From IMG/VR virus record IMGVR_UViG_3300042275_000095, positions 27,110-91,109 of that record: DNA of 64,000 nucleotides, one strand, 5' to 3'. The DNA is from a virus. Lineage: Duplodnaviria > Caudoviricetes. Numbering within the stretch: the stretch's first letter is position 1; each line of letters opens with the position of its first letter. Of the stretch, positions 17,421 to 58,075 are shown in pieces. A program made the position numbers and the translations under genes. The notes under the pieces are model-generated. The model worked only from the letters and a program-made list of their open reading frames with translations, did no database searches and had not been told where the DNA came from.

Positions 17421-17810
17421 TTATATTAATAACCTAAGTAACATTCCTACAACTAATCCAATTGTTACACTTACACGTATTATACCCCTACGTTTGACTG
17501 AATTACAAAATATGATTGCATTACTAGTATTACCTGTTAAACTTATTATTTTTTTAAGTACATCTAATCTATACTTATGAGGTGCAAATACTAATATTAA
17601 AGTATTTATTGTAATAAATAGCTCACTTAATCTTACTAATCCAAGTAAAATAAGAAACATGTTAAATCTAGTACTAAATTTCATATATAAGTGAGCTTCA
17701 CGTAATTTATTATATACTTTATTATCAGTAATTGCAAGGTCATATACACTTTTATGTGTTTTATCATTTGATTTATTTAATGCATCTAATACTTCATTAA
17801 AGTTTTTCAT
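17421..17810 (-). CDS. hypothetical membrane protein
   Basis: Likely start at 17810 (MKNF), with hydrophobic segments. Confidence 0.65.
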   Translation of the reverse strand: MKNFNEVLDALNKSNDKTHKSVYDLAITDNKVYNKLREAHLYMKFSTRFNMFLILLGLVRLSELFITINTLILVFAPHKYRLDVLKKIISLTGNTSNAIIFCNSVKRRGIIRVSVTIGLVVGMLLRLLI

Positions 17811-17891
17811 AGCAATGGTTATTAAATTAGTGAATAATCGGTAATTCCCCATACGGGAAAAGAGAAGCCATTTTCATTACAAACTAACTAG

Positions 17892-25926: not shown

Positions 25927-25971
25927 GCGGACAGAGAGGAATCGAACCTCTCTATACACCATGTGTCCTAC
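25927..25971 (-). ncRNA. anticodon-less tRNA-like element 1
   Basis: GU[A]GGACA-CAUGGUG-UAUA-GAGAGG-UUCGAUU-CCUCUC-UGUCC-GC. Confidence 0.7.
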
Positions 25972-26402
25972 TCAGTACGATGTAACACAGAACCTATACC
26001 TATCACAATAAACCCTATTGCTAATGATATAAATCCTTCTTTGAATGATTGCATTGGATTATCACCTCTAATAAACCACATTACTATCACTAGTTTTAAT
26101 AGTGACATCAGCGATATTGTACTTCCAGCTACTAATAATGAGACACTTATGATATCACGTCGTCGGGATTTAATGTATCTCGCATAATGATAATAAAATA
26201 ACTCATCTAGACTTTCACGCCTTTCATAATTAGCATTAGCTATCTCACATGCACCATCAAAACCCCAAGTCTCAACTTTTTCTTTAAGACTGATAGGTAA
26301 TGATTTATATGTATCAGGTGTGATAAATAAATCATCTAACATGTGAAATGTCTCAGCTGCGAGATACATTCTAAAGTTATAGGTCATCTTAAACTTAGGC
26401 AT
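25968..26402 (-). CDS. hypothetical membrane protein (2 C-terminal TM segments)
   Basis: IISVSLLVAGSTISLMSLLKLVIVMWFI and GFISLAIGFIVIGIGSVL. Confidence 0.75.
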   Translation of the reverse strand: MPKFKMTYNFRMYLAAETFHMLDDLFITPDTYKSLPISLKEKVETWGFDGACEIANANYERRESLDELFYYHYARYIKSRRRDIISVSLLVAGSTISLMSLLKLVIVMWFIRGDNPMQSFKEGFISLAIGFIVIGIGSVLHRTE

Positions 26403-29865: not shown

Positions 29866-30842
29866 TGGTAGAAGAACGCATAATCTATTTTAATGAAGAA
29901 TTGCATAAATATACCGATCAATTTAGTAATGTATATACAAGTGCTACAACTAAGTTAAGTGAATATGAACAAAAGCAAGACTTTAAAAAAATAGCAATGG
30001 CTTGCGAAAGGATTGGTAAGAATCCAGAACATAGAAACTATTATAAATACAAAGGTAAAACTGCTCAACAATTATTGAAAGAGTGGAAACTAATTACCGA
30101 CAACTCACTCGATAGAGGAAATACGGAACACAATTATTTAGAAATAAGTGTGAAATTAGCTAATGGGTTTGAGAGTAATTATAAAAAAGGTAAAAGTTTA
30201 TCAATTGGAAATAAAGAATATACTAGAATGTATAGTATATATGATTTGAAAATAGGTAACTTAAATGATGTAGGAGAAATATCAATTGAAGAATTAAAAG
30301 TTCAGAATTTACATATACGATACCCTGATATATTTAATCTAATTGTCAGTTTACATAAAAAAGGATTTAAGTTTTATCCTGAGATAGTAGTCTATCATCC
30401 TGATTGGTTAATTTCAGGTATGGTAGATTTACTTGCTGTTAGAGGTAATGAATTTATAATTATTGATTGGAAAACTAATAAAGGAGATATATCTTTTGAA
30501 GCGGGTTATTATGAGAAAGATTCTAATGGTGATATGACAAATGTATTTCATAAAACAGGTAAAACATTTAAATATCCTATTCAACATTTACCTGCATCTA
30601 CAGGTCATAAGTACTCATTACAATTATCATTATATGCATATTTCATTGAAAGGTTTGGATTTAAATTAAAAGGTTTATTATTATTTCATATTACACATAA
30701 CGAGATTAAAGAAAGTGACAATATAAGATGGAGAACTAAACCTATTAAAATTGAATACTTTAAAGATGAAATTGAAGCTATAGGTAATGATATAATATTA
30801 ACAGGTGATAACCGTAATACTCAATATAATGCATTTAAATAA
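29862..30842 (+). CDS. PD-(D/E)xK family nuclease
   Basis: RGNTEH...PEIVVY...SGMVDLL...IIDWKTN...YSLQLSLY. Confidence 0.88.
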   Translation: MMVEERIIYFNEELHKYTDQFSNVYTSATTKLSEYEQKQDFKKIAMACERIGKNPEHRNYYKYKGKTAQQLLKEWKLITDNSLDRGNTEHNYLEISVKLANGFESNYKKGKSLSIGNKEYTRMYSIYDLKIGNLNDVGEISIEELKVQNLHIRYPDIFNLIVSLHKKGFKFYPEIVVYHPDWLISGMVDLLAVRGNEFIIIDWKTNKGDISFEAGYYEKDSNGDMTNVFHKTGKTFKYPIQHLPASTGHKYSLQLSLYAYFIERFGFKLKGLLLFHITHNEIKESDNIRWRTKPIKIEYFKDEIEAIGNDIILTGDNRNTQYNAFK

Positions 30843-31368
30843 TAAGGAAGTTTTATGTATTTCATCTTTTTATGAATATTCAAATATTTATAATAATATA
30901 AAAGATGATGTTGAATACGATATCCATATATATCAATGGATAGTAATAGAAAATAACTATTTACGAATCTGTAAAATAGATGGTATTTTACCTGAAACTA
31001 TTTATACAATTTCAGATGTTAGAGATTTAGTATTACCTGGTGTGTATAAATTACAATTACGTAAAGAAGATACACCTTTAACTATTAAATATAGAACCTT
31101 ATTTCCAAAATTATTTAAATACCATATAGAATTGGTTGTTCCAAATAGAACTGGGATATATTATCATATAGGTAATAAATTTAATCAGAGTGATGGTTGT
31201 GAATTAGTAGGAAATAAAATTATTAAATACAAACATAAATTTGATAATGACAAAACATATGTTTTAGAACAGGTATTAAACAGTAGAGTTACATATAAAC
31301 AAATGTACACTAATTTATTACCATTTTTAAATAATGATAATATAAATATATATATTCATATTCTATGA
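30829..31368 (+). CDS. DUF5675-type L,D-peptidase (candidate endolysin)
   Basis: LPGVYKL...VPNRTGIYYHIGNKFNQSDGCELVG (YkuD-like His/Cys motif). Likely start at 30829. Confidence 0.75.
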   Translation: MHLNNKEVLCISSFYEYSNIYNNIKDDVEYDIHIYQWIVIENNYLRICKIDGILPETIYTISDVRDLVLPGVYKLQLRKEDTPLTIKYRTLFPKLFKYHIELVVPNRTGIYYHIGNKFNQSDGCELVGNKIIKYKHKFDNDKTYVLEQVLNSRVTYKQMYTNLLPFLNNDNINIYIHIL

Positions 31369-37715: not shown

Positions 37716-39197
37716 ATGAAAATTTTAAAACAGGCTGTAAATTATGACACCGATTATTTCGTAGATGAAAATACGTTATATCGGAATGAATTGGTAAGTC
37801 CTATTGAGCTTACACAAGCTATTACTTACTTATGGGGAATGAATAGTAAAGAGTTCCCATTGCTTAACCACGTCTTTGGTCAAGGTGGTGTTAAGACTAA
37901 GAAGCCTACAATGCTTAATGAAACTACCTATACTTGGAAAGTAATGGGTCGTATGGAATTAATTACTGTTGTAGACGGATTAGCTGTTGGCACATTAACT
38001 CAACCTGGAATTGGTGGTACTACATTTGACATTTTGTTTAGAGATGGAATGTTACATGCTTATTACACTATTTACACACCTAGTGGAAAACAGTTACGTG
38101 TTAACTATGAACCTACTAGAGAAGGTCAACTGTGGCGTGCGAATGTTACATTGATGACTAACAACATGGCTGACTATGTACCACTAGGAGACTTTGTAGA
38201 AGGCTTAGCATGGGGTTATGGTGTACCAACTATTGCAAGAAGTAAATCAGGTGGTACAGCTAGCAACCGTGTAACTCCGGGTGAAGCTACTAACCAATTT
38301 GGTTTCTACCGTTTCTCAGATAACATTGCAGGTAACATTGCAAATCAGGTTACTGAAGTAGAGTTTACTTTTGATGGTCATCCTCCTACTAAACTTTGGA
38401 TGCCAGAAGAAATGCGTCAATTTGAGTGGCAAAATCTATCAATGATTGAGGTTGATTTGTGGGAATCAGAATATAACCGTACAGAAGATGGTAGAATTAC
38501 ACTTATTGATGATGAAACAGGAGAGCCTATTCCAAAAGGGTCAGGTATTTTTGAAACTGTTAAATCTGTAGGTAACTACGATACGTATTTTAATTTAACA
38601 GTTGATAAATTAGATGGTATTGTAAATTATATTTATGACCATCGAACTGATTCTACACCTACAGAACTCGTATTGTATACTGGTTCAGGTGGAATGAGAG
38701 CGTTCCATGAAGCTATTCAACGTGATGCTATTGCTAATCAATTCTTTACTCCTTTAGGGGATAATGTAATTAGTGGTGGTAGTCATCTTACTTATGGTGC
38801 TTACTTTAAGCAGTATAAGACTATTAATGATGTACTTATCACAGTACAAGAGAGTGATTATTTTAATCATAGTACCAAAGCACAGATGGATCGTCGTAAT
38901 GGCAGAATGCATAATGGACATCCATTCTATTCTTACAATATGGCTATCTTAGATGTATCTATTGATGGAACAGGTGGTCGTAATGTAGAGATGGTAGCTG
39001 AAGAAGGTCGTGAGAAGCTAGTTAAAATCTATGAAGGTATGTCAACTATTCCTGCTGTATGGGCGCCAGCTGCAAGTTCAGGAGTAGCAAGAGCAGCTAC
39101 CAAAAAAGATGTAGCATCTTATGAAATGATTATGAGTGCCGGTATTAATATGAAAAATCCATATACCTCATTCTTAATTGAATTTGAAGGTGAATAA
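37716..39197 (+). CDS. major capsid protein
   Basis: 493 aa, YTWKVMGR, GEPIPKGSGI, LYTGSGGMRAF, crAss-like synteny. Confidence 0.9.
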   Translation: MKILKQAVNYDTDYFVDENTLYRNELVSPIELTQAITYLWGMNSKEFPLLNHVFGQGGVKTKKPTMLNETTYTWKVMGRMELITVVDGLAVGTLTQPGIGGTTFDILFRDGMLHAYYTIYTPSGKQLRVNYEPTREGQLWRANVTLMTNNMADYVPLGDFVEGLAWGYGVPTIARSKSGGTASNRVTPGEATNQFGFYRFSDNIAGNIANQVTEVEFTFDGHPPTKLWMPEEMRQFEWQNLSMIEVDLWESEYNRTEDGRITLIDDETGEPIPKGSGIFETVKSVGNYDTYFNLTVDKLDGIVNYIYDHRTDSTPTELVLYTGSGGMRAFHEAIQRDAIANQFFTPLGDNVISGGSHLTYGAYFKQYKTINDVLITVQESDYFNHSTKAQMDRRNGRMHNGHPFYSYNMAILDVSIDGTGGRNVEMVAEEGREKLVKIYEGMSTIPAVWAPAASSGVARAATKKDVASYEMIMSAGINMKNPYTSFLIEFEGE

Positions 39198-52290: not shown

Positions 52291-53298
52291 ATGTTTAATG
52301 ATAAAGTAGATTATACGTTTAATTATTGGGATGAAAACCTAAGGTATATGGCTCAGAAGGGTCATGATGATAATGGTAGAGGGGATGGCCTATATAGAAC
52401 ATCTTTAGCTTATATAGCATACGGTAATGCTAAGTTAAAGAGTAGCATCCTTTCTTCCTTTAGGGAGTTTACAATGATTAACAAAAGACATCGTAAATTA
52501 GTACAGGGAGCTAGAGCACCTTTTAGACATAGTGAAGATGACTTTAGTCGTGATCAATATATTTTAGCAGTATCTGCTTTATACATTAAAGGTGACAGTG
52601 ATGAACTTGTTAATATTACTAGTAAAATACCATATCGTTTAAGTAGACGTTTTAGAATGACTCCTACATTATGGTGTTGGACTAAATATTTACAAGGTAA
52701 AAATAAGAAATTCAATTTAGTACTTTATAGAACATTAGAGTTACTATCACAATTATTTATAATACCTATATCTAAATTAGGGCAATTAATCACAGGATTA
52801 AATAAACATTACAGTATTACAGAATTATTGTCTGTTGATCCTAATCTACCGTATTGGCACTATGACAATACTAAAAAAGAATGGATTTATAAAACAGAAC
52901 CATCTAAAACTGCAACATTATCTCATAAGTTATGTAACAAACATTTAATGATGAAAGATACCAGATGGTGGTATAAGCTAGCCTATGGTCTAATTACTCC
53001 AGGATATGCTAATTCATTAGGTGCATACATGGCACACATTGCAGCAGGTAAATTGCTCAAACGTTTACTATTAACAAATATACCTAAAGCTAATATATTG
53101 CAAAGGTATTTATTAGATGATAAATCTTTAGATATTAAAACTGAGATATTAAAGGATTATCATGATTGTACAGGTTATATTTGGAATAGTAACTTTTTAG
53201 GTACAAGTATTAAGTATAAGTTATCAAAGCGTGAAACAGAATACAACAATGTTCCATTGGACATTATTAAAGCTTTTACAGATGCCAAGGAAGAATAA
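52291..53298 (+). CDS. hypothetical protein (helical, possible enzyme)
   Basis: 335 aa, GRGDGLYRT and RAP...DDFSRDQ conserved-looking motifs. Confidence 0.75.
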   Translation: MFNDKVDYTFNYWDENLRYMAQKGHDDNGRGDGLYRTSLAYIAYGNAKLKSSILSSFREFTMINKRHRKLVQGARAPFRHSEDDFSRDQYILAVSALYIKGDSDELVNITSKIPYRLSRRFRMTPTLWCWTKYLQGKNKKFNLVLYRTLELLSQLFIIPISKLGQLITGLNKHYSITELLSVDPNLPYWHYDNTKKEWIYKTEPSKTATLSHKLCNKHLMMKDTRWWYKLAYGLITPGYANSLGAYMAHIAAGKLLKRLLLTNIPKANILQRYLLDDKSLDIKTEILKDYHDCTGYIWNSNFLGTSIKYKLSKRETEYNNVPLDIIKAFTDAKEE

Positions 53299-53536: not shown

Positions 53537-53782
53537 ATGACTGATAAACCTAAAGATGAGAAAAAGATAGTTACCATCGCTAAAAAAGTATGGAATTTTT
53601 TAGATGGACATAAAACTAAAATAGGTACAGCTATCTATTTTGCAAATGAATTATTTGGTGCTAAATTACCAACGCAATGGAGTGGTGCATTGGAAACAGG
53701 AGCTGAAATAATGATTGCTTTAGGTTGGGTACATTATTTATATAAAGGTAAAAACAATATTAACAAACTTAAAAAGAAATAA
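53537..53782 (+). CDS. putative holin
   Basis: 81 aa, LDGHKTKIG followed by two hydrophobic helices and a highly basic C-terminus. Confidence 0.55.
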   Translation: MTDKPKDEKKIVTIAKKVWNFLDGHKTKIGTAIYFANELFGAKLPTQWSGALETGAEIMIALGWVHYLYKGKNNINKLKKK

Positions 53783-54245: not shown

Positions 54246-54276
54246 TTGCATTTCTGTATTTTATTGTTTATATTTA
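54246..54276 (+). promoter_or_regulatory. rightward Bacteroidota-type promoter
   Basis: TTG-N20-TATATTTA. Confidence 0.6.
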
Positions 54277-54337: not shown

Positions 54338-54850
54338 ATGACAAGACGAGAAGTATTTAATTTTTTTAATCATTTTGATAAACTTAGACTACCTAAAGAA
54401 TCTGAAAATCACAGTATGAAATTTGCATTAGGTGTCAATAAAAGTAGATTAGAACCTTTGTATAATGTAATCAAAGATGAAATTAAAACAGTACCTGAGT
54501 ATCAAGAATATTACAATGAGTACAGTACATTGCTTCGTAAGTATTCAACTAAACCCAAAGATGGAGGCGATGTAGTTAAACAAGATTTGAAAACAGGTGG
54601 TACAGAAGTTAACATTGATGATACAAAAGCAACTGAGTTTAATAAAGAAATTAATCAACTACGTGAAAAGTATAAGAGTACAATTGAACAAGTTAATAAA
54701 TTTGAAAGTGAATTTCAAGAGTATTTAAATGGCGAAATAGAAGATAATTTGTTACCTAACATTATAAAAGTATCAGTTGATAATATACCTTACGATGTTT
54801 ATAATACAGATGATCACTTCTATTTAATAGCATTTATGGTTAAAGATTAA
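54338..54850 (+). CDS. conserved phage helical protein (tail-assembly-chaperone-like)
   Basis: FALGVNKSRL...LLRKYS pattern typical of ORFs following tail fibres. Confidence 0.5.
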   Translation: MTRREVFNFFNHFDKLRLPKESENHSMKFALGVNKSRLEPLYNVIKDEIKTVPEYQEYYNEYSTLLRKYSTKPKDGGDVVKQDLKTGGTEVNIDDTKATEFNKEINQLREKYKSTIEQVNKFESEFQEYLNGEIEDNLLPNIIKVSVDNIPYDVYNTDDHFYLIAFMVKD

Positions 54851-54873: not shown

Positions 54874-55467
54874 ATGGCACTAGCACCCGAATATATAACA
54901 GGAGGCGCTGCTATAATAGCAGCAATAATAGGTGGCTTGGCTACTATCAAATGGGAACGTTTTAGAATAAGAAGATTAAAAAATAGAAAGTATAAGTTAA
55001 TAAACCAACGTATAAAGATAGATGCTGAGATACATGGAATGTTAGGTGTCTTACTTGGAATAACTAAAAGTGATAGGACTTACATATATCAGTTTCATCC
55101 TGATGCAAGCCCTATTTATTTTAGTTGTTCATATGAAGAAGTTAAACCTGGAGTAAGCATAGAAGCTGATAATCGCCAAAATTTAACATTATCACATCAT
55201 ACGTCATTCATCCAAGATATACAAGAAGAAGCAGTGACTTGTTGTAATGTGGATACAATAATGGATAAAAAAATAGGAAAAATATTAAATAGTCAAGGAG
55301 TTAAAACCGTATGCCTATGGCCTATTAAAAATGATAATGGGTATGTAATAGGGTTTGTAGGAGTTGATTATTTATCTAAACAACGTAGTATAGATTGTGA
55401 TATTAAGACATTACTTTCAAATTTTGCATTTACTGTATTTCCTAAATTAGCAAGTTATGAAAAGTAA
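54874..55467 (+). CDS. membrane-anchored GAF-domain protein (holin-like or sensor)
   Basis: Single N-terminal TM, then SDRTYIYQFH...FSCSYEEVKPGVS...QGVKTVCLWPI...VIGFVGVDY GAF signature. Confidence 0.8.
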   Translation: MALAPEYITGGAAIIAAIIGGLATIKWERFRIRRLKNRKYKLINQRIKIDAEIHGMLGVLLGITKSDRTYIYQFHPDASPIYFSCSYEEVKPGVSIEADNRQNLTLSHHTSFIQDIQEEAVTCCNVDTIMDKKIGKILNSQGVKTVCLWPIKNDNGYVIGFVGVDYLSKQRSIDCDIKTLLSNFAFTVFPKLASYEK

Positions 55468-55861
55468 GAAAATCGCATTTGTGGACGATAATCCAAATGA
55501 TCTAACTTTATATGGAGCAATGCTTAAGAATATGAATTATGAAGTATTGTTAATAAATAATCCATATATAGCCATAGATAAAATTAATGAATTTAAACCT
55601 GATATTGTATTTATGGATGTAAGGTTAGGTACTAACATTTCAGGTTTTCATTTAGTTAATAAATTAAGAATTGATAATTTTAAAGGTGCAGTTTATATGT
55701 TAAGTGCATCAGATGATTTTACAAATATAAATAATAGTTTAGATAGTGGGGCAGATGACTATTTAGTAAAACCTATTTTCAGTAATATTTTAAATAATTT
55801 AATTGAACGTTATAATGGCAACTCTAAAAGAGATATCAAACCAATGTTTAGCAATTGCTAA
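55457..55861 (+). CDS. single-domain response regulator (CheY-like receiver)
   Basis: D10-D11, phosphoacceptor D54, S83, Y102 and K105-P106 all present, no output domain. Confidence 0.92.
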   Translation: MKSKKIAFVDDNPNDLTLYGAMLKNMNYEVLLINNPYIAIDKINEFKPDIVFMDVRLGTNISGFHLVNKLRIDNFKGAVYMLSASDDFTNINNSLDSGADDYLVKPIFSNILNNLIERYNGNSKRDIKPMFSNC

Positions 55862-56429
55862 GATAAAACCTGATATTGTAGATTACAATATTCAATTGAT
55901 AGCCGCCGCTAATCTATTTATTTCAGCATACGCTAAACGTATAAGAGACGATATAAATAAAGGTAGACCTCAAGAGGCTTATTTAATAACTTACGATGTT
56001 GAAATGCAATATGATGAAACTAGAGGGGTATTAAGAAGCAAGTATAAAATATATAAGCCTATCCGTACAAATGAGTATGCCCCATTTAAAAGTGTTGGTA
56101 GTAAAGATGGCAGATTCATATTACAATATTCAAATAAGCAATCCTTTTGGATGCGTAGATTATCACAGTTTATGTCAGATGTTACATGTTATACTTATGA
56201 GCATGACTACCTTTACATATTTAATAATCATAAAATAGCAACTGTTGAATTAACAGCTGCATTTGAGTTACCATATTTAATTGAAATTGGTAATGAAGAA
56301 GTACAAAAGTTAGATAATGGTGAAGCACTGTTAAATGAATTTCCATGTCCTAATGATATGATAAATTCTATAGTAGCTGAAGTAGCATCAATGTTAATAT
56401 CAAACCCTACATCTAGTGGCAAAGCATAA
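55815..56429 (+). CDS. tail ring protein
   Basis: Likely start at 55815 (MATLKEIS...), with YLYIFN and EFPCPNDMINSI resembling crAss ring proteins. Confidence 0.6.
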   Translation: MATLKEISNQCLAIAKIKPDIVDYNIQLIAAANLFISAYAKRIRDDINKGRPQEAYLITYDVEMQYDETRGVLRSKYKIYKPIRTNEYAPFKSVGSKDGRFILQYSNKQSFWMRRLSQFMSDVTCYTYEHDYLYIFNNHKIATVELTAAFELPYLIEIGNEEVQKLDNGEALLNEFPCPNDMINSIVAEVASMLISNPTSSGKA

Positions 56430-57384
56430 TACTAAATATAATATTAAAGCATATTATGATAAATATATATCTTTGATATTGTCTCAACAAGAGCCATTAA
56501 TAGCAGAGAGAAAAGAAATCTATGTTATTAAAATAAAGCTGTATAAAAAGATAATGCCTTATAAAGAAGAATTGTTAAAAATAAGAGGACTATTTAAGTT
56601 CTTACGTAGTATTCAATTCTCACCTAATATGTATGATGAAGTTAAACATCATAGATATGCAAAGGCTGTTAAAAAACATTTAGAAAATAAAGAATTAGCT
56701 ACTAACTGTGTAGCTATAATGGAATATACAGCTAATGATTTAAAATGTAAAAAGAAATTAAAAGATACTGAATCTGCATTAATAACAAGTAGTGCGTATA
56801 AAAAAATATTAGATGCGTATTATAACTATATATCTAATTGGATATTGCAAGGATATGTTTTTTATATTGGCCCTAACCTAGGTAAAATATATATTAAAGA
56901 AAGACATAAGAATTTCATAAATGAATTAGGTGAAACAAGAGGAATAGTTGATTATGCTGCATCATATGCACTATTAGAATCAATAGCTAAAAAACAAGAA
57001 GCGGAAGGAAAGCATCAATTATATACCGAATATAAAGAGTTGCATAAGTATAACATTAGACAGTTTACACATGCTATGAAATCTCACACGTATTCACCAA
57101 GTAATCCTGATTTACCAAAATGGATAATCTATCATACTGATGATTGGGTTCCTTATTTTATATGGGGAAATAAAGATAAGAGTATGACTGAATTATCTAA
57201 ATATACTTTTAAACCTACATCATTTATAAATACTAAACTACGCAATAAAGAATTATTTATTAGCAATGTTGAAAATATAGATGATATTATAAATTGTAAT
57301 GAATTAGGTGTGAAAGACAAAATGTTTTTAATTAAACGATTCGATTCCAGTTATTATAAGGAGACTAGAGATGATATATCATAG
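56416..57384 (+). CDS. crAss IHF-like protein
   Basis: ILQGYVFYIGPNLGKIYIKE...W...YTFKP, syntenic before the tail tubular protein. Confidence 0.6.
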   Translation: MAKHNTKYNIKAYYDKYISLILSQQEPLIAERKEIYVIKIKLYKKIMPYKEELLKIRGLFKFLRSIQFSPNMYDEVKHHRYAKAVKKHLENKELATNCVAIMEYTANDLKCKKKLKDTESALITSSAYKKILDAYYNYISNWILQGYVFYIGPNLGKIYIKERHKNFINELGETRGIVDYAASYALLESIAKKQEAEGKHQLYTEYKELHKYNIRQFTHAMKSHTYSPSNPDLPKWIIYHTDDWVPYFIWGNKDKSMTELSKYTFKPTSFINTKLRNKELFISNVENIDDIINCNELGVKDKMFLIKRFDSSYYKETRDDIS

Positions 57385-58075
57385 TATTAGTAGTGAAGTG
57401 TTAGTAGCTAAAATAGATAATAGCTATACAATTACAGGTAGTACAGATTGGATAACTAGATTACCTGAGTGGGTTGCAGATGCGATGGCTCAAATAGATA
57501 TGCCATTATCTTATTCAAGACAAGAACCGTATAAAATGACAATTGCAGGTAGACGTGGCAAATTACCTTGTAACGTAGAACGTGTTTTATTCATAACAAA
57601 AGATGGTAAAGCAATGTCATATATACAAGATGGTGTAATGAGACAACCTAATGAAAATATTGAAATAAGTGGTACATATTTTTATGAATATACAAAATCT
57701 GGTCATATTATATGCAATTTTGAAAGCGGTACAACTTACGTTTATTATAAAGGTATTGATAGTGCATATAACAAAGTTCTGGGTATATCGTTCCCTTATG
57801 TGCCATATAATAGAGTTTTATTGAACGCTTTGGAAAGTTATACACTTTATCGTATATTAACAAAAGGCGGTACAGTACTAGGACAAAGTTTAGCTAACAA
57901 TAATCCATATACAAATCCAGCTTTACAATGGGAATTATCATTAAAAAAGGTTAGAATTGCATTGTTAGATGATTATGATGAAGCTATGGAAAATATAGAT
58001 GCTACTATGAGAGGCTTCATAAAACCCTACGGGGAAGAAAGAGATACACGTGATTACTTAAATACATTAGAATAA
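57371..58075 (+). CDS. tail tubular / ring protein (P22 gp4-like)
   Basis: EWVADAMAQI...GKLPC...PYVP...ALESY, directly upstream of the stabilisation protein. Confidence 0.7.
   Translation: MIYHSISSEVLVAKIDNSYTITGSTDWITRLPEWVADAMAQIDMPLSYSRQEPYKMTIAGRRGKLPCNVERVLFITKDGKAMSYIQDGVMRQPNENIEISGTYFYEYTKSGHIICNFESGTTYVYYKGIDSAYNKVLGISFPYVPYNRVLLNALESYTLYRILTKGGTVLGQSLANNNPYTNPALQWELSLKKVRIALLDDYDEAMENIDATMRGFIKPYGEERDTRDYLNTLE

Follow-up and report, generated by a model that had tools for sequence, protein, structure and literature searches.

A membrane-anchored GAF protein and a co-encoded stand-alone receiver in a crAss-like phage: remote kinship with holin T and a possible role in lysis

What use would a bacteriophage have for a membrane-anchored sensor-like protein and a phosphorylatable response-regulator domain encoded in overlapping reading frames? 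The question is raised by positions 54874–55861 of a 64,000-nucleotide stretch of viral DNA (hereafter the window), which makes up the right-hand end of a virus record of 91,109 bp (IMGVR_UViG_3300042275_000095; CheckV completeness 96%). The virus is a crAss-like phage with a G+C content of ~28%. The locus consists of two open reading frames (ORFs), the first encoding a protein with a transmembrane (TM) helix and a GAF domain and the second a receiver.

54874..55467, + strand: ORF A, TM-GAF protein of 197 residues, with TM at ~8–26, basic stretch at 26–41 and GAF domain at ~43–197
55457..55861, + strand: ORF B, single-domain receiver (REC) of 134 residues, Pfam Response_reg
55457..55467, + strand: the 11 nucleotides shared by the end of ORF A and the beginning of ORF B, ATGAAAAGTAA

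A first-pass annotation, made from the letters of the window, had proposed a signal-controlled lysis module lying beside the lysis genes. The anatomy of the two proteins, the missing kinase and the predicted topology have stood up to analysis; the adjacent lysis genes and the promoter have not. The question matters because, for crAss-like phages as for other phages of Bacteroidota, almost nothing is known of how lysis is controlled, and this genome shows no recognisable holin. We report that ORF A represents a large phage family remotely related to the T holins of T4 and T5, and that one subclade of this family is paired with a receiver.

ORF A is a GAF protein with a predicted membrane anchor

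Both ORFs and their 11-nucleotide overlap are present exactly as first described. The reading of ORF A as a TM helix followed by a strongly basic stretch and a GAF domain is likewise correct, as judged by hydrophobicity, charge count, HMMER and hhalign comparisons, an AlphaFold2 model and Foldseek. The hydrophobic segment covers approximately residues 8–26 (Kyte–Doolittle 19-residue maximum 1.87) and is followed by KWERFRIRRLKNRKYK, with 8 lysines plus arginines (K+R) in the 15 residues after the TM and 0 before it. The model, built with an 85-sequence alignment of TM-GAF proteins (A1), has a pLDDT of 93.8 and contains one continuous helix, residues 5–64, running from the TM into an alpha/beta domain. 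Comparison with solved GAF domains gave a Foldseek probability of 1.0 and VIA Z-scores of 17–18, with top hits that are all GAFs. The best VIA match was 7lsc_C (Z 18.1, root-mean-square deviation (rmsd) 2.5 Å over 147 residues). Bilin binding, raised by the cyanobacteriochromes among the top structural hits, was set aside because no chromophore argument was found and the similarity is that of the general GAF fold.

Single-profile searches were less informative. The Pfam GAF, GAF_2 and GAF_3 profiles gave no match to ORF A at E-values up to 1, a Pfam scan at that threshold returned DUF1601 only, with no Phage_holin_T, and a PHROGs scan returned only phrog_38864, annotated as of unknown function. 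An exhaustive HMMER search with ORF A matched the GAF domains of PAS/GAF/HisKA/HATPase kinases at E-values down to 3e-18, and the matched stretches coincide with the Pfam GAF domain (in protein P0020, for example, the match covers 91–206 and the GAF 75–209). Profile–profile alignment by hhalign of A1 with a 12-sequence kinase-GAF alignment gave a probability of 99.9% (E 9e-36). Across the ORF A family R68, H75, and E88 are near-invariant. ORF A is thus confirmed as a bona fide GAF domain protein, anchored to the membrane by a predicted TM helix.

The exhaustive HMMER search, run against a representative library, recovered 393 relatives of ORF A at E-values up to 1e-3. About half are ~200-residue proteins built like ORF A, and the others lie within long proteins that Pfam identifies as PAS/GAF/HisKA/HATPase kinases or GGDEF proteins. 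One TM-GAF subgroup alone has 184 relatives in IMG/VR, and a locus scan with a further alignment (A2) returned one locus only. All family members are annotated as hypothetical. By sequence, ORF A is a member of a newly recognised phage family of ~200-residue TM-GAF proteins that is large and has had no annotation.

Kinship with holin T

When A1 was compared by hhalign with a seven-member alignment of T4/T5-type holins (A5), the two matched with a probability of 89–94% (E 2.4e-6 to 8.5e-8) over 130–134 columns, that is, over the whole domain. Controls stayed low: 0.1–0.3% for the receiver alignment, at most 1.4% for 30 column-shuffled versions of A5 and 0.2% for A5 reversed. The 12-sequence kinase-GAF alignment reached only 0.6–1.2% against T, versus its 99.9% against A1. 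Because generic kinase GAFs do not detect T, the link to T is specific to the phage TM-GAF family, and because A1 matches both kinase GAFs and T, this family forms a sequence bridge from canonical GAFs to the T holins.

Structural comparison points the same way and upholds the earlier statement that T4 holin T has a GAF-like domain. The periplasmic domain of T4 T (6pxe_T) aligned with the ORF A model at Z 13.3 and rmsd 3.4 Å over 136 of 147 residues, pairing model residues 43–192 with T residues 72–218. The other hits shown in the exhaustive structural search were GAF-type or GAF-containing proteins, with the exception of one long helical protein at rmsd 19 Å. We found no paper in the open-access literature that calls the T4 T domain a GAF. 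On these profile and model comparisons the TM-GAF family is a remote homologue of the T4/T5 holin T, an assignment that is new here.

Predicted topology

The TM-GAF family carries on average 0.88 K+R before the TM and 4.49 after it, and the excess lies on the C-terminal side in 74 of the 85 members. Corresponding means for the T holins are 2.43 before and 1.86 after. T holins are N-in proteins with a periplasmic domain. The first-pass annotation had placed the ORF A GAF in the cytoplasm by the positive-inside rule, unlike that of T4 T, and the charge bias behind that prediction holds family-wide. The GAF of ORF A is therefore predicted to face the cytoplasm, the same compartment as the receiver. 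The invariant cysteines of T, C175 and C207, are not conserved in ORF A, where W149 aligns with C175.

The receiver and its pairing with ORF A

ORF B had been described as a CheY-like receiver with every catalytic residue and no output domain, and both the Pfam search and an alignment to PhoP agree. It matches Response_reg (PF00072) with 67 bits (cut-off 30.2; E 2e-18; 66.9 bits in the genome search), and its D10, D11, D54, S83, and K105-P106 align with the catalytic positions of Bacillus subtilis PhoP (1mvo). Past the receiver fold there are only ~20 residues, which overlap the downstream gene for tail ring protein 2. D54, K105, and P106 are invariant in an alignment of five receiver orthologues. 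The nearest cellular relatives of ORF B are the receivers of OmpR-family regulators.

ORF B is the only receiver found in a six-frame search of the whole genome. No HATPase_c domain was detected in the same kind of search of the whole 91-kb, 96%-complete genome, in which HisKA and HPt were not searched separately. The earlier finding that the window holds no histidine kinase thus extends, for HATPase_c, to the entire record.

The two genes form a conserved unit. In comparison with the closest relative, which is 84% identical, ORF A has a ratio of nonsynonymous to synonymous substitution rates (dN/dS) of 0.15 and ORF B one of 0.13. Purifying selection thus acts on each gene, and neither is a chance ORF. 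The 11-nucleotide overlap suggests translational coupling. Its junction, TATGAAAAnTAA, is kept in three relatives (L001, L002, and L004), and a more distant contig, L092, has an 8-nucleotide overlap, ATGTGTAA.

All crAss-like relatives that we found carry the pair, with ORF A identities of 50–85%. L092 carries it too, with an ORF A homologue 36% identical and a receiver 28% identical, on a contig that otherwise has no gene in common with this phage, carries a T4_baseplate gene, and lacks ring proteins. Given its presence in this contig, the pair behaves like a cassette of two genes. Searching with the receiver alignment as a profile returned 8 phage proteins that form a tight clade (E at or below 1e-35) and then, after a sharp drop, cellular OmpR-family regulators (E ~1e-18). 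Wherever the context of a member of this clade could be read, the receiver gene comes after a TM-GAF gene; one such case is in a non-crAss contig. Among the results that would refute its proposal, the first-pass annotation had listed a receiver not conserved along with the GAF gene; every relative found keeps the receiver with the GAF gene. A quick tree groups the receiver-paired TM-GAFs into one 12-member clade (SH-aLRT 97), which also holds one unpaired protein, P0040. The receiver-bearing viral loci L106–L112 encode ordinary regulators with no TM-GAF, and there were no GAF–REC fusions among the mid-length ORF A matches. Taken together, ORF A and ORF B probably work together.

Lysis cassettes in other phages

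In four other phage lineages, genes of the TM-GAF family are part of a lysis cassette or adjoin one. The gene orders are as follows.

Nonlabens phage P12024S: tail protein, gp11, TM-GAF (gp12), endolysin (phrog_894, 5e-45), holin (phrog_3427, 3e-31)
L093: tail fibres, TM-GAF, holin-like protein (phrog_8226, 1e-3), 111-residue ORF, endolysin (phrog_669, 7e-23)
L096: TM-GAF, Rz-like spanin, Rz1-like spanin
Marine lineage (L010 type): peptidase, holin (phrog_9987, 4e-9), TM protein, lipoprotein, TM-GAF

These placements by lysis genes occur in siphovirus-like, podovirus-like, and jumbo phage contexts that lack crAss tail genes. It is this synteny, together with the homology to holin T, that links the pair to lysis, and we lean, with less assurance than for the joint action of the two proteins, towards a lysis-related role for the TM-GAF family.

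Three TM-GAF contexts showed further features. The marine IMG/VR contigs (L009–L088, e.g., L010:2017-6787) share a conserved block of PhoH, an optional set of peptidase, holin, TM protein, and lipoprotein, then the TM-GAF and its downstream genes, which encode a Zn-ribbon protein, a sigma-factor-like protein (phrog_1740), and a 350-residue protein. The TM-GAF in this block always keeps the Zn-ribbon and sigma genes, even where the lysis genes are missing. The 88-residue lipoprotein bears an EF-hand-like DSDSNGTID motif. In the uncultured jumbo phage LR756508 (L006:3845-5637) a 220-residue TM-GAF homologue is followed two genes on by a 134-residue protein with a signal peptide, a coiled coil, and a C-terminal TM, matching phrog_937 ('hemolysin', 3e-5); this protein may be a lysis or spanin-like partner. 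At L095:3658-7307 the TM-GAF homologue P0040 and the 169-residue ORF that follows it have IS605 OrfB/TnpB (Cas12f-like) genes on both sides, a hint of mobility.

Genomic context in this phage

The surroundings of the pair differ from what had been claimed. The features that bear on this are listed below.

30805..31365, + strand: DUF5675 (C82-like peptidase) ORF, candidate lysin, 23 kb from the pair
37716-39197: Crass major capsid protein
53537..53782, + strand: ORF of 81 residues with two weakly hydrophobic helices and a charged C-terminus, a possible holin only
54338..54850, + strand: coiled-coil-like ORF of 170 residues, directly upstream of ORF A
55815..56429, + strand: crAss tail ring protein 2 (Pfam CrAss_Ring_2, 2e-14)
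57371..58075, + strand: crAss tail ring protein 1 (Pfam CrAss_Ring_1, 7e-10)

Pfam and PHROG scans of the whole proteome recognised no classical endolysin, holin, or spanin. The placement of the pair beside the lysis genes could not be sustained, as no endolysin is recognisable nearby and the candidate lysin lies 23 kb away. That candidate, the only one recognisable in the phage, is the DUF5675 ORF, a family read as a C82-like peptidase lysin (bioRxiv 10.64898/2026.04.11.717860, 2026 preprint). We regard the 23-kb distance as weak evidence against a link to lysis. In T4, genes t and e are also far apart.

The 81-residue ORF that had been called holin-like is weakly hydrophobic (Kyte–Doolittle 19-residue maxima of 0.79–1.27 in six orthologues), has no Pfam or PHROG match at E 0.01, and shows no similarity to the phrog_9987 holin; as a holin it is possible only. 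A promoter had been predicted at 54246, but sigma-70-like sites occur at chance level (43 found versus 47.5 expected in shuffles). The 335-residue ORF at 52291-53298 was tried as a lysin and rejected, since its Atlas hits were all viral hypotheticals apart from a sub-threshold alpha/alpha-toroid lead (0.80). Two ORFs of ~143 residues in the minus-strand (early) block, at 17424-17852 (-) and 25971-26402 (-), each have two predicted TM segments and no family match, and are alternative candidates for a holin or other membrane protein.

The pair sits in a plus-strand run of tightly spaced or overlapping late genes: the 170-residue ORF, ORF A, ORF B, ring protein 2, a 322-residue ORF, ring protein 1, and a 1133-residue ORF. 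The ring protein 2 gene overlaps the end of the receiver gene by 47 nucleotides, so the pair is embedded in a late tail-gene block. For ring protein 2 the ORF list gives a TTG start at 55803; the ATG at 55815 is preferred from orthologues of 204–206 residues. Conservation of the 170-residue coiled-coil-like ORF alongside the pair is confined to the crAss-like clade, and L092 lacks this ORF.

A receiver-gated membrane protein and its alternatives

We propose, tentatively and at somewhat less than even odds, that ORF A acts in lysis, as a holin-T-like protein or as a regulator, and that the receiver translated with it gates its cytoplasmic GAF through host-supplied phosphorylation. In this proposal the single TM helix of ORF A would continue as a long helix into the cytoplasm-facing GAF, and ORF B would be a dedicated, phosphorylatable cytoplasmic partner made by translational coupling with ORF A. 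The GAF would control the assembly of the TM helices into a lethal membrane lesion, or else modulate another holin, and the receiver would act as its blocking or releasing partner. The affinity of the receiver for the GAF would be set by phosphorylation of D54 by host histidine kinases or acetyl-phosphate, a host source being proposed since the phage itself lacks a kinase. The timing of lysis would thereby track the signalling or energy state of the host. We infer the topology, the GAF–receiver contact, the source of phosphorylation, and the effect on lysis. A bolder version is possible but doubtful: the TM-GAF family would be a cytoplasm-facing sister or ancestor of the T-type holins, gated in this crAss-like clade by a host-charged receiver that serves as a phosphorylation-driven lysis clock or antiholin switch. 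To our knowledge, no holin system uses a two-component phosphorylation signal.

Several observations weigh against this proposal. The pair lies inside a tail-gene block in this phage, and none of its neighbours can be recognised as a lysis gene. The homology to T is remote, with no match of the Pfam Phage_holin_T profile to ORF A at E-values up to 1, and with a topology predicted to be the reverse of T's, the T mechanism is not simply transferable. A receiver was found within 4 kb of the TM-GAF in 0 of 80 marine loci, and none stands by the TM-GAF in L005, L006, L093, L095, or L096; most TM-GAF genes thus lack a receiver, which makes it an add-on in one subclade. Even among the paired forms, the L002 receiver has an acidic pocket of DN rather than DD. 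In the marine lineage lysis-like genes are directly upstream in only ~36 of the 80 loci, PhoH takes that place in 40 of the 80, and the constant neighbours of the TM-GAF are the downstream Zn-ribbon and sigma-factor-like genes. Finally, three lineages have a separate canonical holin, so the TM-GAF may be a regulator there, or may be unrelated to hole formation.

The best surviving alternative, though an unlikely one, is that the pair hijacks host signalling and has no part in lysis. The receiver would be a phosphate sink or decoy on a host two-component or phosphorelay pathway, with the TM-GAF tethering it near host kinases or sensing a metabolite, and host physiology would be reprogrammed late in infection. 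Single-domain receivers are established as phosphate sinks, for example CheY2 of Sinorhizobium. By its residue set the receiver is fully phosphorylatable, it has no output domain and no phage kinase to serve it, and the OmpR-family receivers that are its nearest cellular kin make cross-talk with host kinases plausible; the lack of any recognisable lysis gene beside the pair also fits. Such a role, however, leaves unexplained both the homology of the TM-GAF to holin T and the lysis-cassette positions of its relatives, and the late tail-gene block would be a late place for a takeover function.

Less probable still is that ORF A is a membrane-bound sensor or sponge for a small molecule, such as a cyclic nucleotide or another GAF ligand from host defence, with the receiver as a downstream adaptor in counter-defence or superinfection control. 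GAF domains commonly bind cyclic nucleotides and metabolites (PMC3057836). The GAF of ORF A is canonical, as its 99.9% match to kinase GAFs indicates, the near-invariant polar residues R68, H75, and E88 could line a ligand pocket, and there are structural hits to the cAMP-bound Lcd1 GAF domain 5w10_A and to phosphodiesterase (PDE) GAFs at Z ~12. No ligand motif was identified in it, however, a sponge does not need a membrane anchor, and the synteny of the family is with lysis genes and not with defence or anti-defence genes. That the two proteins belong to the crAss-like tail, being virion-associated or ejected from it, with the TM inserting into the host membrane at infection, agrees with their overlapping frames between tail-fibre-like genes and ring proteins 2 and 1, but is the least credible of these readings given TM-GAFs by lysis genes in siphovirus-like, podovirus-like, and jumbo contexts without crAss tail genes, a phospho-receiver with no obvious virion role, and the pair without ring proteins in L092.

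Comparison with known systems

Returning to the receiver-gated lysis protein that we favour, its closest parallel is T4 holin T (Pfam Phage_holin_T; PDB 6psk, 6px4, 6pxe). T is a class III holin of ~200–218 residues with an N-terminal TM, a long helix, and a GAF-like C-terminal domain, as in ORF A. Gene t follows the tail-fibre genes 37 and 38, as the TM-GAF of L093 follows tail fibres, and T has a small partner protein encoded with it, as ORF A has ORF B. The partner of T, RI, binds its C-terminal domain and delays lysis (PMC11413866). The differences are considerable. ORF A has an N-terminus of ~7–13 residues and a GAF predicted to be cytoplasmic, whereas T has ~30 cytoplasmic residues and a periplasmic domain; the conserved cysteine pair of T is absent from ORF A; and the partner of ORF A is a phospho-receiver, whereas RI is a periplasmic protein. 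The ORF A domain is far closer to canonical kinase GAFs than that of T. T is a holin, whereas the lysis role of ORF A is predicted from homology and synteny.

A second parallel comes from Bacillus subtilis. SpoIISA has a Nout-Cin topology with a cytoplasmic GAF after an extended helix and is proposed to cause holin-like membrane damage; SpoIISB, a small cytoplasmic protein encoded by the adjacent gene, binds the SpoIISA GAF and neutralises the toxin (PMC3057836). The predicted architecture of ORF A and ORF B is analogous, with a cytoplasmic GAF on a membrane protein and an adjacent gene for a small probable partner. SpoIISA has three TM segments versus one in ORF A, SpoIISB is a disordered basic peptide of 56 residues versus the folded receiver ORF B, and the SpoIISA–SpoIISB pair is chromosomal in Bacilli versus phage-borne here. 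SpoIISA is not among the PDB matches of the TM-GAF family profile at E-values up to 10.

The receiver itself resembles CheY, Spo0F, and DivK, which consist of the receiver fold only, with all catalytic residues as in ORF B, and act by protein–protein contact. Unlike these, ORF B comes from a phage, whose genome encodes neither a cognate kinase nor a phosphotransferase (by the HATPase_c search, HisKA and HPt not having been searched separately), and its clade is paired with a TM-GAF gene in place of one for a kinase, for chemotaxis, or for a phosphorelay.

Taken separately, none of the elements is new: holins with antiholins, membrane toxins bearing a GAF, and single-domain receivers have all been described. 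What is new is that a large unannotated phage family can be assigned to the kin of holin T, with a GAF predicted to face the cytoplasm, and that one of its subclades is strictly paired with a kinase-less phospho-receiver. A family known only as hypothetical proteins thereby gains a testable assignment as relatives of the T4/T5 holin T. If the receiver does gate ORF A, this would be the first phage to wire host phosphorylation signalling directly into a lysis device, and the two genes would be a compact, transferable module. Even if the link to lysis fails, a phage receiver that has no kinase and always accompanies a membrane GAF would be an unusual signalling arrangement.

Other observations outside the window

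Upstream of the window, a 5780-residue ORF (G000:C1:6999-24338) spans what had looked like an ORF desert. It is presumably the giant RNA-polymerase polyprotein of crAss-type phages. Just outside the window, on the minus strand, lies a dUTPase gene (G000:C1:25406-26035; phrog_135, 4e-51), whose product carries an N-terminal extension of ~60 residues with a strongly hydrophobic TM-like segment, unusual for a dUTPase.

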